DNA of 64,000 bases from Octopus vulgaris (lineage: Eukaryota), in assembly GCA_951406725.2 (NCBI GenBank), contig OX597834.1, positions 19,344,001 through 19,408,000 on the forward strand. The letters are read 5' to 3'. The position numbers and the translations under genes were made by a program. This document shows positions 1,183-30,636 of the stretch, piece after piece (position 1 is the stretch's first letter; the number at the start of each line of letters is the position of its first letter). The notes under the pieces were generated by a model. That model was not told the origin of the DNA. It searched no databases and was given only the letters and a program-made list of their open reading frames with translations.

Positions 1183-3144
1183 ACAAGGCCCCAGATTTAG
1201 TGAATAGGTACAGACAATTAGGTTGAACCCCATTATTCAACTGGTACTTATTTTTTCTTTCCCAAAAGGATGAAAAACAAAGCTGACTTTGGTGAGATGT
1301 GAACTCATAATGCTAAGCCTTGCAACTAAATACCACAAAGAATTTTGTCTGTTGCTCGACTGAGACAGCCACTGACTGTATTGATAACAGTAATGATATG
1401 TAGTCTGTTCTTTTGGCTGCTCTACAAAACATCAATTATCCATTGATTTGATTCAATTGCCGAGTTTCTATTCATTAATGGCAGATCATACAAAAACATT
1501 GCTTTCAGAACAATGGAGTAAGTCTGGTAATAAGTCTCTGGTAAATATTTATTCTCTTCATAACAATGGATCGTTTCATAAATATTTAGAAAGTCTCAGC
1601 ATTATGTGCCAAGTTTGGAATCAGTGTTCTTTATGCTTCTCTCAAAAGGCATTATAATCTTCAGTTCCCTGTTATTTCCATTTAACAATACAACTTTCAT
1701 TTCCTTGTTTGTTTAACATCTGTTTCCTTTATGCTGGCAGGAGTTTGCATGGATAGTTATTTAAGACAGGATTTTACAGCTGTGTGCTTTTCCTGTTGCC
1801 TACTCTTAGCTGTTTTCCCAGTGAGAGATTTATTAGGCAAACCTATGAAAGTGCAGAGCAACCACTCACAGGGTCAACAAGTAATGTCAACAGCAGCACT
1901 GCTTCACTCAAACAGTAACAAGTGCAGAACATAAGCAACTCCCCTCCCCCACATACACACACTTACATGTGTATATTTACTTGCAGCTGCTTTCCATCTA
2001 CCAAATCCACTCACAAGGCTTTGGTTCGGCTGAGGCTGTAGTAGAAGATACTTGCCCAAGGTGCCATGCCGTGAGACTGACTGAACCTGGAACCATGTGG
2101 CTGGGAAGAAAAAGCTTCTAAACACACAGCCATCTTTAAAATCTGGAAGCTACAAAATACTACATGATTAATTCTAAAACATGTGGATTAATTAACATTA
2201 TATTTGATAAATTATTCTGAATGCTAAAGACTTTTGAGGAAGACCAGCTGTTGCCTAATTGTGTAAGTCTTCCTTCCTTACATCACCAACGCTTATCCAA
2301 GAGAACGGTACTAGTTTGAGTCTTATATAACTTGACACCAATTTCATTGCTGGAATTGCTGTCTAAATGCAAAAAACCAAGATAAAAACAGCAGGGTATC
2401 TTGCCAACCCCTCAAAAAGTTCTTCAAATCCATTGCTCTAGGGTTCCAGTTATGAATTCCAAAGTATTTGCAAACAGCAAATAACTTATTTTTGCATTCA
2501 CCTAAATTGTTCTTCAAAACTTTCATGCTGCTTTCATGGTGATATGGCCTTTTATTTCATCTTATTTTATTTCATCTCAATTTATTTTTATGTTCCCATC
2601 ATGCATCCGGTTATCTATAGATCAGATGTCTATTTATTATCATTGAAATTATTGTTTCCGACATTTGCAGTGTATCCATTTCTTCTTTTATAGATAATCT
2701 AATATTAGTATTACTCTATCTTCATGTGAAAATATTTGCATGAAACAACTTAACAACTTACTGAGATGATAAAATATCACTGATAAAGAAAAAAGGACAA
2801 AAACAAAGCACAGAAAAATACACACACACAATTAGTGTCACAGTTCTTTGTTGTTAACTGGTTGGTATTTGTAGATCCTCAGACTCAGCTGATTTTGACA
2901 ACACTGGAAACAAATAAATATGACTATAAAAATGATACTCAAATTGTTTATCTTGGTTATTAAAACACTGGATAATTATTATTCTTGTTATTTTATTTTT
3001 GATTTACAGAGATGTACTTGCATAGCAAGTGATTTGATCTGAGATCGTGTGCTGAAACGAAAACAATTGCAGCATGGAAGATGTTTGTAAGCCATTTAAG
3101 GAACACACAAAAGCCGTTCAATTCACTTCAACATTTAAGTTTAA

Positions 3145-3189
3145 TTTGTCAAAATATTTTCGTCGCTTTAAGACCTGTTCACTGACAAA
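3145..3189 (-). ncRNA. Minimal type-I hammerhead ribozyme-like motif, antisense copy, G3:C8 core
   Basis: Minus strand reads TTTGTCA-GTGAACA-G-GTC(TTAAAGC)GAC-GAAA-ATAT-TT-TGACAAA. Stem III is the palindrome AAUAUU; stem II is shortened by a 6-nt deletion. Confidence 0.5.
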
Positions 3190-3205
3190 AGATGCAGCAT
3201 GGATT

Positions 3206-3256
3206 TTTGTCAGTGAACAGGTCGCGGTCTTAAAGCGACGAAAATTTTTTGACAAA
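3206..3256 (+). ncRNA. Minimal type-I hammerhead ribozyme-like motif, G3:C8 variant core
   Basis: Stem I TTTGTCA (3206-3212) / TGACAAA (3250-3256); core GTGAACA plus G; stem II GTCGC/GCGAC; GAAA at 3240-3243; vestigial stem III; UH = UU. Confidence 0.55.
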
Positions 3257-5527
3257 TTAAACTTAAATGTTGAAGTGAATCGAACGGCTTTTGTGTGTTT
3301 CTTAAATGGCTTACAAACACCTTCCACGCTGCAATTGTTTATTTTTGATATTTCACACCAATATATTTTTTCTTGCACGGTTTAAAAGCTTCTGTAAAAA
3401 ATATCATTGGGGGAGGAATATGGGGCTTAGTGGATGAGGTGTTGTACTCATTATTGTAAGATTGTGGTTTCTGTTCCTGGACAAGGTGACACGTTATGTT
3501 CTTGAGCAAGACACTTTATTTGACACTGCTCTAGTCCACTCAGCTGGTAAAAAGAAGTAATCTTGCAATGGACCAGTGTCCCATCCAGGAATGATTTATG
3601 TACATGAGAAAAACTGGGAGACTAGCCTTATGCTCCTTACAGAGAAACGTGGGCTAACCATATCTGAGTGAAATAATATCGTAAATATATCAAAAATTGC
3701 ATTATGGAGTTACAAACATCATAAATCTATGCCCTTCTTTCCCTTCATTATTCAACAAGGATGAATTATATTTTTGTAATCTGGTGTCTTAGCTCTACCC
3801 AGACAGAGTATGGTGTGGCATTTGCAACGTGTTTGAACTTATAACTATTCACATCTCAGTCTGCTTGAATATGTTAAGAATGAATATATTCGTCATTGTT
3901 TCAATTGCCATTGTCTTTGCCTTGTATGGTGATGGTAATTTAATATCAGCTTTGTAAACCTCATCACACATCAAATAAACAAGTATATCTTGTTTGTAGA
4001 ATTCTATCGGCAACAACGAATTCTTGTCTAGCTTCAGAGTTCTGGATAGTGTTTCTCCCTGAGGAGGTGCAATCATGCTGAAACACTGGTGTCTATTGGT
4101 CTGCTAAGGTCACTGGAGTAAATGTGTTTATTTACATCAGCAAGAAGAGAATGTTGTTCTCTGAAGATAAAAATCCAGTGAATGTATACTCCATTGCTAA
4201 AATTACTTTTCCATAGTTTATTTATTTCCATTAATAGTATTTTAATCACATAAGAACACTTCTATTTTGCTTAGTTTAAAGAGAGAAAAATATTTATTCT
4301 ATTTCTGACTCACTTATCATTTTAGAATTACTTTATACTCACAAGAGAAATAATTAGAGAGTTCATTTTATTTTATATTTTTAATTATTATTTTTTATTT
4401 ATTTATTATTATTCCTACATTTATTCCTGGCTTGACGAAGTTCTTGTAAAGTAATTATAAGTGGTTTTATGAAATTACAGGTGATCTCGAAATACATAAA
4501 AAATTTCATTTGCTTATTTTACTGAGTACACTTAATAGTGTAAACAGTCATTGGCAGAAAAGCTTTAACTGTCGTTATTTCACATAGGGCAGGCAAAGGG
4601 TTAGATACCAGATTTAAAGTTACCTTTATTTCATCATTGTTTTTCTATGAAGATAGTGAGATGGCAGGTGCATTAGAGTGTTGGACAGAATACTTTGCAG
4701 TATTTGTTTCAACCTGAGTTCAAATCCAACTGTGGCTAATTTCAGAGTTGATGAAAAAATTAAAATAAAGAAGGGATGGCCACAGCTGGACTATCCTTGA
4801 TCAGTAGATTTGCTCAGTGATGGCTAACCTGGGTGTAGGCTACAAAATTATTATTATTATTTTCTACATTGTTATTATCATTTGCCTCCTCCTTTTCCTC
4901 ATCATTTTTATTCATCATTAAACAGCACACATTTCACAAACATTACACATATATTTCATGAATTTATTTACTTTCTAATCTAAACTGGAAACCAGAAAAG
5001 AGTTGAGAATGATATCTCGGTTAGTTCCATAACCAACATTACAGAGATTGTATTTTTCATTAGTGTTTGACTGAATATTTGCTTAAAATGACATTCATTA
5101 TTTCTAATGATACACTATTTAATAATAGAATCTATGAGATTTTAATTAGAAACCACTATTGGTTTATCAAAATTTCCTATCTACACAATAGGTTCACTAT
5201 AAATCTATTTGATTGGCTGTTTTTATTTTCATTATGATATCTCTGTCTTACAATCATCTTATTTATTTTTCTTTTACATCATAACAAATATTCTTAAAGG
5301 GAGTTTTATGACCAGTTAATGAAAGCCTCTAAGTAGTCACTAAATATACTAGAAATAGCAACCATATTTTTCATTTTATTTAAAAACAAAAGGAAGAAAT
5401 TATTGGTTATGTCTAACTATATAAGGAGTGGTCATGACTGGAGTGCCTTTGATCGTAGGTTTATGAACTTTGGTGAAACATGGTGATGTTCATCATGCTT
5501 TAATTAGCATCATAATGAAAAAATAAA

Positions 5528-7011: not shown

Positions 7012-7218
7012 GGTAAGCTGGCAGAACTGTTAGGACTTTGGGTAACATGCTTTGTGGCATTTTGCCCATCTTTACATTCTGAGCTCAAATTCCATTGAGA
7101 GTAACCTTCTCTTTCATCCTTTTGGTGTCAATAAATTAAGCACCAGTTATGCACTGGGGTTGATGTAATCGATATCTCCCTCCCCCAAATTTCATGCCTT
7201 GTGCCTATAGTAGAATGG

Positions 7219-7250
<32 letters not shown>

Positions 7251-7531
7251 GGCAGCGAGCTGGCAGAAATGTTAGCATGCCGGGCAAAGTGCTTAGGGGT
7301 ATTTCGTCTGTCTTTTACCTTCTGAGTTCATATTCCACCAAGGTCAACTTTGCCTTTCATCCTTTCGGGGTCAATAAATTAAGTACCAGTTGCCTACTGG
7401 GTTCAATCTAATTGGCTGGCCCCCACCCCCAAAATTTCAGGCCTTGTGCCTAGAGCAGAAAAGCTTATCATCATCATCATTATTATTAATATTATCATCA
7501 TCATCATTATTATTACTACTACTACTACTAC

Positions 7532-22507: not shown

Positions 22508-22922
22508 AGGTGGCGAGCTGGCAGAAACGTTAGCACGCCAGGCGAAATGCATAGTGGTATTTCGTCTGCTGCTACGTTCAGAGTTCAAATTCCGTCAAGG
22601 TCGACTTTGCCTTTCATCCTTTCGGTGTCGATTAAATAAGTACCAGTTACGCACTGGAGTCAATATAATCGACTTAATCCGTTTGTCTGTCCTTGTTTGT
22701 CCTCTCTGTGTTTAGCTCCCTTGTGGGTAGTAAAGAAATAGGTATTTCATCTGCCACTACGTTCTGAGTTCAAATTCTGCCGAGGTCAACTTTGCCTTTC
22801 ATCCTTTCGGGGTCGATTAAATAAGTACCGGTTACGCACTGGGGTCGATATAATCGACCTAATCTGTTTGTCCTTGTTTGTTCCCTCTGTGTGTACCCCC
22901 TTGTGGGCAATAAAGAAATAAA
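22508..22922 (+). mobile_element. SINE family B followed directly by a 5'-truncated second copy
   Basis: Full copy 22508-22742; the second copy starts at the shared ggtattt microhomology. Confidence 0.9.
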
Positions 22923-29847: not shown

Positions 29848-30065
29848 TAATGCTTACCATAACATCAGTATGGCTGTTCCATAGGCATCGATGTTACTGC
29901 TGTTTTTAACCCAGGAGGAGGCTCCTCCTGGAATTAAAAATGGTAGTAATCCTCTAACTTGCCAATGTGGTTTCAATTCCTGGACAAGGTGATGCATTGT
30001 GTTCTTCATTTCATGTTACTCCAGAACACCCAGTTTGTAGAGATGAGCAACCTTGTGACTGACTT

Positions 30066-30636
30066 GCACTCAGAATGCTTTGCAACGTTTGTTTTTGAAA
30101 GTAGTGGTTTTCTGATTGCAGCCTTCTCATGAAATCCTGCTTTGTGCAGCTCCTGGTGTACAATTTTTGTGTTCATTAGGTGATCATTATGCTCTGCAGT
30201 AATTTTGGGGGCTGTACTTTTGTTCTCCTTTCTAACAATTCATGTAAGAGTCTGATGGTCCCTATCTGAAAGTTTTGGTTTTCTTCTAGAGTTTTGTTTC
30301 GACGAGGAAGTTTTTCCCTCTTTCTCAAAGGCTGTCATTACTTTCGAGATAGTACTTCTTGATACACCAAATATTTTGGCTGTTTTTGATATGGTAGCAC
30401 CTGCCATATGAGCACCAACAATTTGACGTCTTTGAACGTCCGATAGATCTGTCATTTTAATGAATTTTAATTACCTTTTTCTCATCATATCTGAAAAGAA
30501 ACAGCAATTTTAACAAAACATATTAAGCAACACTAATGATAAATCAAAAGACATAAAAATAAACAAGCTTTTGACAGTTTTATAGATATTTCAAAATAAT
30601 GAGGCTATGAGTTTATATTATTTTGTCCAACCCCTG
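30066..30636 (-). mobile_element. Tc1-like transposon remnant (one TIR and the N-terminal transposase)
   Basis: Terminus CAGGGGTTGGACAAAATA at 30636. ORF MTDLSDVQRRQIVGAHMAGATISKTAKIFGVSRSTISKV... is a paired-like HTH, and a degenerate continuation reads ELHKAGFHEKAAIRKPLLSKTN. Premature stop present. Confidence 0.85.

Follow-up and report, generated by a model that had tools for sequence, protein, structure and literature searches.

Close to the start of the window, by which we mean the whole 64,000-nt stretch of Octopus vulgaris DNA analysed here, lies a long foldback whose two arms each resemble a small hammerhead ribozyme with an inverted G3:C8 pair in the catalytic core. What kind of element is this, and could such a core still cut RNA? 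Our reading, which we consider probable, is that positions 3004-3340 form one insertion made of two 5'-truncated pseudo-long terminal repeats (pLTRs) from an abundant Penelope-like retrotransposon (Penelope-like element, PLE) of octopus, arranged head to head, each with a minimal type-I G3:C8 hammerhead motif which likely cuts RNA in intact family members, while both copies present here are probably inactive. Judged by its sequence, this is a real hammerhead-type motif in an ordinary inverted PLE insertion, and its catalysis is predicted. The foldback layout itself is ordinary; the interest lies in a natural G3:C8 core that appears to be family-wide.

The foldback, a probable inserted pair of pLTRs

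The inverted repeat was confirmed, with arms at 3061-3175 and 3226-3340 that are ungapped and 96% complementary, and, if a single 6-nt gap is allowed, the complementarity continues inward as far as about 3190. The foldback is predicted at -200.4 kcal/mol (z -28) and 0 of 100 shuffles were equally stable. The first-pass annotation had described a 280-bp inverted repeat; the foldback at 3061-3340 is real but the insertion is larger (3004-3340), as it extends 57 bp further to the left and has a flanking direct repeat. Indeed, a 12-nt exact direct repeat surrounds 3004-3340, positions 2992-3003 being identical to 3338-3349 (9 nt if the last T's are element-derived). In a chance test of the target-site duplication (TSD), 19 of 5000 random position pairs reached a 12-nt match and 54 of 5000 reached 9 nt. 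We place the left TSD at 2992..3003 (+), with a length of 9-12 bp because up to 3 T's are ambiguous, and the right one at 3338..3349 (+).

Sequencing runs support these limits. The stretch or a part of it is contained in 20 of 24 listed runs from 10 studies, which cover the coded organisms A to D and one marine metatranscriptome, and the contigs of four runs (X1, X3, X6 and X9, one of the four RNA-like by guess) were mapped on 2860-3560 (701 bp). A single-copy flank contig of run X1 begins at 3338, within the right TSD. On the left, loose ends that continue into unrelated AT-rich sequence accumulate before 3004 in runs X1, X3 and X6, with contigs running from 3004 through the arm, and a second pile before 3009 is seen in run X1 among the rows listed.

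Within the insertion, the left pLTR copy (3061..3190, -) is 5'-truncated at the base of stem I and continues outward into a one-sided PLE tail of 52-57 bp (3004..3060, -), family copies ending at 3004 and 3009. The right copy (3190..3340, +) is without tail, and family contigs cover 3190-3337 and 3201-3339. The pLTR holds the start of the PLE open reading frame (ORF). Indeed, on the sense strand of the ribozyme an ATG at 3095 follows the predicted cut site by 57 nt and opens a frame of 30 codons (3006..3095, -) which runs to the tail end, codons 12-30 being encoded by the tail; ORF nucleotide 35, in about codon 12, is the last one in the arm, and nucleotide 87 or 92 the last one in the tail. 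An inverted 5'-truncated copy with a short TSD in AT-rich DNA, as found here, is a feature of PLE insertions.

The identity of the element was followed through this frame. The 30-aa peptide matched a single protein among 1.84 billion, an O. bimaculoides model with the same starting Met. Furthermore, the arm and tail peptide is identical at 27 of 29 residues to the N-terminus of P0004, an O. sinensis model that continues gap-free into a longer ORF, and a third Octopus model starts at the second Met of the peptide; all three models carry the tail-encoded residues onward into a longer ORF. Residues 25-223 of P0004 match the N-terminus of the 1045-aa protein P0006 (31%, E 8e-26), and the O. vulgaris model P0035 matches P0006 at 41% over 473 aa, as far as motif A of the reverse transcriptase (RT). 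In the AlphaFold model of P0006 (mean predicted local distance difference test score 87), telomerase RTs are the seven best Foldseek matches in the PDB. The link to RT/GIY-YIG ORFs which had been proposed as a check was therefore found, through a chain of protein matches and not through DNA continuity, and a single ORF with a telomerase-like RT plus, at the C-terminus, a GIY-YIG endonuclease is indicated indirectly, starting from 30 codons. The PLE ORFs have a CxxxxCxxC linker and a C-terminal endonuclease, features which may point to the Neptune/Nematis type. That the stretch is a pair of PLE pLTRs is, in our view, highly probable. As for the cephalopod Penelope/retrozyme family that had been suggested, the PLE origin stands by the protein link to Octopus models and RT/GIY-YIG ORFs, whereas the retrozyme part does not, the locus having no tandem unit and the arm carrying a PLE ORF start.

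In the window itself, Pfam detected no RT or GIY-YIG domain (0 of 134 non-repetitive frames of at least 70 aa). With the PLE protein alignment, none of 11 candidate stretches in viral contigs proved to be a relative, and in GTDB 1 of 23 did. With P0006, a sequence search of the PDB gave 0 matches and a profile search one bacterial RT at E 1e-5 plus four weak matches, and for P0003 no usable match came from the ESM Atlas (best 0.75). A 109-aa stop-free plus-strand frame over the foldback (partly P0002) had no Pfam match and was taken as chance.

Among the related proteins, P0006-P0034 have a C-terminal endonuclease, yet about 120 residues separate their RT motifs A and B, and they carry the motifs LYGLRKDHK and GGAIG. 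We take this motif A-B spacing to be longer than in canonical PLEs. By their sequences these proteins possibly form an unplaced PLE clade. LYGLRKDHK and GGAIG were not found in the available supplement text of PMC8557442.

The hammerhead motif and its G3:C8 core

A hammerhead descriptor allowing any Watson-Crick 3-8 pair matches the window at two sites only, one in each arm. The core is GUGAACA in both, at 3213-3219 (+) and 3182-3176 (-), in agreement with the core first noticed, as are the 7-bp stem I, the GAAA and U16.1/U17 at 3248/3249. In the right motif (3206..3256, +), stem I is formed by 3206-3212/3250-3256 and stem II by 3221-3225/3235-3239. Its core runs from G3 (3213) through U4, G5, A6 and A7 to C8 (3218) and A9 (3219); G12, A13, A14 and A15.1 occupy 3240-3243, followed by U16.1 (3248) and U17 (3249), with the predicted cut at 3249/3250. 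An extra nucleotide, G3220, which the first-pass annotation did not mention, stands between A9 and stem II, and G10.1-C11.1 corresponds to G3221-C3239. The left motif (3145..3189, -) has G3 at 3182 and C8 at 3177.

The conserved U4, G5, A6, A9, G12, A13, A14, A15.1-U16.1 and H17 are present in both arms, while the literal consensus C3/G8 is found in neither, the G3 and C8 found instead being Watson-Crick compatible. Both arms have the type-I layout, with stems I and II around the core and the ends in stem I (7 + 5 bp on the right, 7 + 3 bp on the left), and the predicted pair probabilities of the right-arm stems are 0.71-1.0. The arms had been thought to fold alike as type-I hammerheads: stems I and II, core, GAAA and UH are there, but the arms are unequal and each has a lesion. 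In the left copy 6 nt of the 5' strand of stem II are deleted, leaving 3 bp, and the 6-nt stem III palindrome from A15.1 to U16.1 (3158-3153) is intact. In the right copy the 5-bp stem II is intact and a T at 3246 breaks the palindrome. The palindromic segment needed for a dimeric stem III is thus present in the left arm and in the family majority, and broken in the right arm; two intact ribozymes, as had been assumed, are not found at this locus. Nor are two sense copies in one transcript, since the copies lie on opposite strands and no further copy was detected in the window by BLASTN or by the descriptor.

At each copy's own stringency, the descriptor gave 0 matches in 300 dinucleotide shuffles of the 64-kb window on both strands, and two loose settings gave 1 and 3 matches in 300 shuffles. 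No hammerhead model was among the 11 Rfam matches at E up to 10, all of them below the gathering score, the coverage of minimal PLE forms by Rfam being unchecked; the miRNA-type matches reflect the long hairpin only. Folded in isolation, the motifs gain little over shuffles, with z -2.1 on the right and +0.1 on the left. Being modestly or not at all more stable than shuffles, they leave the hammerhead case to rest on pattern and not on stability. We regard it as very likely that the motif descends from a hammerhead. As expected for a core that reads GUGAACA, it is invisible to CUGANGA descriptors. Separately, the right-arm ends 3194-3204 and 3323-3333 are nearly complementary (9 of 10), and a long-range helix is predicted around the ribozyme and the ATG; the family majority base at 3200 weakens it.

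Is the inverted pair a property of this copy or of the family? Summed depth in X1 reaches 10^5-10^6 over the element compared with about 50 on the flanks, which marks a very abundant repeat and gives no copy number. Between 15,921 and 24,985 contigs per run (X1, X3, X6) fall on the 701-bp stretch, including a second repeat at 3424-3553. At 3246, A accounts for about 99% of family depth in X1, X3 and X6 and for 93% in X9, hence an unbroken palindrome is typical of the family. C>G at 3218 or, in the mirror arm, at 3182 would be required of a canonical C3:G8 subfamily, and no C>G difference was observed at any place at 5% or more in any of the four runs. Therefore G3:C8 looks like the family-wide state, a U3:A8 subfamily being compatible with the tallies and short contigs with clustered mismatches being possibly under-represented. 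Among the 40 of 100 difference rows listed, those inside the motif fall in loop II (3231, mirror 3170) and at 3246, which is not a covariation test. In the same contigs, joints link 3326 to 3202/3203 (depth up to 1587, X3) and 3342 to 3195 through short AT-repeat linkers. They tie the distal arm to the ribozyme start and might reflect units in tandem, or insertions into (TA)n that lie side by side.

The swap is not common to every relative (n=1), as the related locus L001, which encodes a 34% identical protein, has a 3' motif with C3:G8. This hammerhead-like motif (L001:2535-2577, +) lies 228 nt past the stop of the related PLE ORF and has an extra G, a 5-bp stem II, a 6-nt palindrome and a 6-bp stem I, but position 5 is A and the 15.1-16.1 pair is inverted to U15.1-A16.1. 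A relaxed descriptor, written after the motif was seen, matched 0 of 3000 contig shuffles. G5 and A15.1 are described as interacting (Perreault et al. 2011), and the changes at position 5 and at 15.1-16.1 may be linked. The L001 contig is filed in a bacterial metagenome-assembled genome and is probably animal host DNA.

Other repeats surround the insertion. The second very abundant repeat (3424-3553), 84 bp to its right, has a tRNA-like head, and we take it by resemblance to be like a short interspersed nuclear element (SINE). Another SINE-like repeat forms tandem pairs at 7016-7494 and 22556-22920, with units of about 243 and 185 bp, and 30009-30470 (-) holds a broken Tc1/mariner-type transposase N-terminus in two frames (helix-turn-helix Pfam matches).

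Insertion, cleavage and competing explanations

How would such a pair arise? By analogy with PAc (Poseidon of Anolis carolinensis, PMC11167929), where both strands of AT-rich DNA are nicked by the endonuclease and the tail is set by two internal start points of the RT, we infer a route with two nicks and two starts. The GIY-YIG endonuclease would nick both target strands 9-12 nt apart, each nick priming a cDNA, and the RT would copy the RNA from two internal start points, one giving the long end (3004) and one the short end (3340), so that the 3' ends face outward. Both cDNAs would then abort near the ribozyme and be joined head to head. Self-priming on an antisense template is another possible route (PMC3846280).

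As for cleavage, G3:C8 would preserve the tertiary pairing of 3 with 8, by which the 2'-OH at position 8 is set in place. The first-pass annotation had called C3G plus G8C compensatory, which is supported by the partial rescue of a PLE hammerhead: the double swap C3G/G8C partly restores PAc cleavage, whereas each single change abolishes it (PMC11167929). A U at position 17 suits a G3 core, since a C there would pair with G3. According to a statement given as data not shown (PMC3884650), G17 makes a G3-C8 variant more active than the natural C17 does; U17 is common in canonical minimal hammerheads too (PMC4209133). The predicted probability that a monomer forms stem III is 0, and a monomer unable to do so would need a second sense copy or protein help in order to cleave. 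Both kinds of help have been reported for minimal PLE hammerheads (PMC4209133, PMC11167929). Two sense RNAs or tandem pLTRs might thus pair via the 6-nt palindrome and build stem III, and the intact family motif, aided by a second copy or by the element's own protein, would cut the element RNA 57 nt upstream of the start codon. We lean slightly towards measurable cleavage by the intact family motif.

The locus itself is another matter, and its cleavage in vivo seems improbable to us, owing to the lesion in each copy, their location on opposite strands, and the misfolding of the right copy and burial in double-stranded RNA (dsRNA) that are predicted. The extra U of the right copy draws G5 and A6 into a wrong helix with a predicted probability of 0.7. 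A read-through transcript, whichever its strand, has a predicted folding energy of about -210 kcal/mol and a predicted probability of 0 for the ribozyme stems, even if it ends just past the right ribozyme; the sequestration in long dsRNA that had been suggested for a locus read through is borne out by this prediction.

Several points weigh against our reading as a whole. On the RNA side, the predicted ground state extends stem I through a G3-U17 wobble, the palindrome duplex is marginal (-0.2 kcal/mol, predicted), the extra nucleotide is a G where the published consensus has H and G is rare, and exact-pattern scans of viral contigs, metagenome contigs and GTDB yielded no copy. On the protein side, 5 of 30 relatives had a Pfam RVT_1 match and 5 of 30 a GIY-YIG match, none of which reached the curated cut-off, the ORF link is built on predicted gene models, the C-terminus of P0004 being chimeric with a methyltransferase, and the pLTR is tied to an RT by protein matches and not by a full-length Octopus ORF or joining DNA. 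Moreover, hammerhead cleavage is dispensable for PLE insertion in vitro (PMC11167929), and the motif could therefore ride along unselected. This last point leads to the strongest competitor, which keeps the PLE origin and sees in the G3:C8 motif a relic of negligible catalytic activity, a founder-copy swap amplified passively in an element that needs no cleavage to move. Such a relic agrees with the hammerhead mutants that were without effect on insertion, with RNA-seq in which no reads end at the cut site (both PMC11167929), with the poor cleavage of minimal hammerheads even as dimers (PMC4209133), with a double swap that rescues only partly, with the predicted G3-U17 mispairing and with the A at the otherwise conserved position 5 of L001, the sole related locus retrieved. 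However, an exact restoration of the 3-8 pair by two changes while U4, G5, A6, A9, G12-A15.1, U16.1, G10.1-C11.1 and the palindrome all persist is unlikely without selection on a folded core, and U17 avoids the core-trapping G3-C17 pair, in line with the activity reported in PMC3884650. We consider a relic rather unlikely.

The remaining explanations concern the element and its layout. A short retrozyme-like derivative of the pLTR, non-autonomous and spreading as tandem units or circles, would account for the heterogeneous loose ends before 3190 (agreement 0.46, X3) and for the joints from 3326 back to 3202/3203 (depth 1587 in X3), and a 2026 preprint derives animal retrozymes from pLTRs. However, retrozymes are by definition tandem arrays of 150-450 bp units, each of which contains a hammerhead and lacks coding sequence, whereas the locus has no tandem unit and its tail, TSD and ORF start are features of PLE insertion, which makes this origin quite improbable. 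The folding energy of the read-through RNA and the zero probability of its ribozyme stems would also suit a selected regulatory device, with the foldback locking the ribozyme in dsRNA or feeding dsRNA to editing or silencing. Yet head-to-head pLTRs are the commonest PLE arrangement (PMC3846280), both motifs are mutated, and the RNA-like run has no excess of A>G places (13 compared with 13-15 in the other three runs). Since the foldback is the usual layout of a PLE insertion (PMC3846280, PMC8557442), no regulatory explanation is needed, and we judge it very improbable. Finally, the inverted repeat with its TSD, the weak folding of the isolated arms and the missing Rfam hammerhead match could recall an ordinary miniature inverted-repeat transposable element, with terminal inverted repeats and TSD, or a chance palindrome with an accidental hammerhead look-alike. 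This is hardly credible, because the ends are asymmetric, with a 57-bp tail between the left TSD and the arm, the arm encodes a PLE ORF start and the descriptor has 0 matches in 300 shuffled windows.

Meaning and comparison with known systems

The 3-8 pair is a tertiary contact which sets up hammerhead catalysis, and its inversion has so far been laboratory-made only, within the literature covered. A natural family that fixed both changes would be evolutionary evidence for selection on the active fold of PLE hammerheads, and would bear on an open question since cleavage is dispensable for PLE insertion in vitro. Our most far-reaching proposal, which we put forward as tentative and somewhat short of probable, is that the inverted G3:C8 catalytic core, fixed in an abundant PLE family of Octopus, still supports self-cleavage in a dimer or with the aid of that family's own protein, which would make it the first natural family-wide G3:C8 hammerhead. 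If so, censuses based on CUGANGA miss such motifs, and hammerhead counts as well as statements of 'no hammerhead' for PLE families need to be redone; descriptor searches would have this blind spot in genomes where the repeat is very abundant.

In the parts of the literature covered (including PMC6765202, PMC6155905, PMC7229834 and PMC13282606), G3:C8 hammerheads were engineered examples only and no natural one was met, Lunse et al. 2017 and Arkhipova et al. 2017 lying outside that coverage and being able to hold some. A literature search combining Penelope, octopus and hammerhead gave nothing on a G3:C8 octopus family by title or abstract. Among the 56 representative motifs of PMC4209133 (Fig. 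S3), 53 have C3:G8, 2 U3:A8, 1 U3:G8 and 0 G3:C8, and the sole covariation described in the available text of that paper is U3:A8. U3:A8 is known as a natural covariation, the only one from nature in the text covered (Perreault et al. 2011, PMC3088659), and occurs in the Cercyon family of S. mansoni (PMC4209133). Like the octopus G3:C8 it preserves a 3-8 Watson-Crick pair, but it consists of two transitions while the octopus core needs two transversions, which invert the pair.

The octopus motif shares with the PLE minimal hammerheads of PMC4209133 its position in the pLTR, an extra nucleotide after A9, G10.1-C11.1 and a tiny palindromic stem III. They are also alike in having no visible loop I-II contact and in their paired copies on opposite strands. 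It differs from them by G3:C8, by the extra nucleotide being G and by a 7-bp stem I that is longer than most. Other Octopus PLEs are distinct from this family: Hydra-1_oBim (PMC8557442) has a canonical core and a different sequence, and Naiad_Obim/Ovul (PMC8557442) have an N-terminal endonuclease, unlike the C-terminal one here. Moreover, the core is canonical in 34 of 34 rows of File S2 of PMC8557442, one Octopus family included.

With regard to the insertion, the same inverted 5'-truncated copies and tails are described for PLEs in PMC8557442, and Pen2a_Av of Adineta vaga (PMC3846280) has an inverted pLTR, a 9-bp TSD, a one-sided tail and a pLTR with the first 12 codons. Indeed, the codons within the pLTR and with the tail are 12 and 22 in Pen2a_Av compared with about 12 and 30 in the octopus element. 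Pen2a_Av retains its ORF and has a tail of 31 bp, whereas the octopus insertion consists of two truncated pLTRs only, with a tail of 52-57 bp. The likeness to PAc (PMC11167929) extends to a pLTR hammerhead close to the beginning of the ORF, two RT starts, AT-rich targets and nicks on both strands, and the short end past the cut site measures 91 nt here against 85-92 nt in PAc. The ATG lies inside the ribozyme in PAc and 57 nt downstream in the octopus element. Furthermore, the C3G/G8C swap that leaves PAc partly active was engineered, whereas the octopus family carries it naturally.

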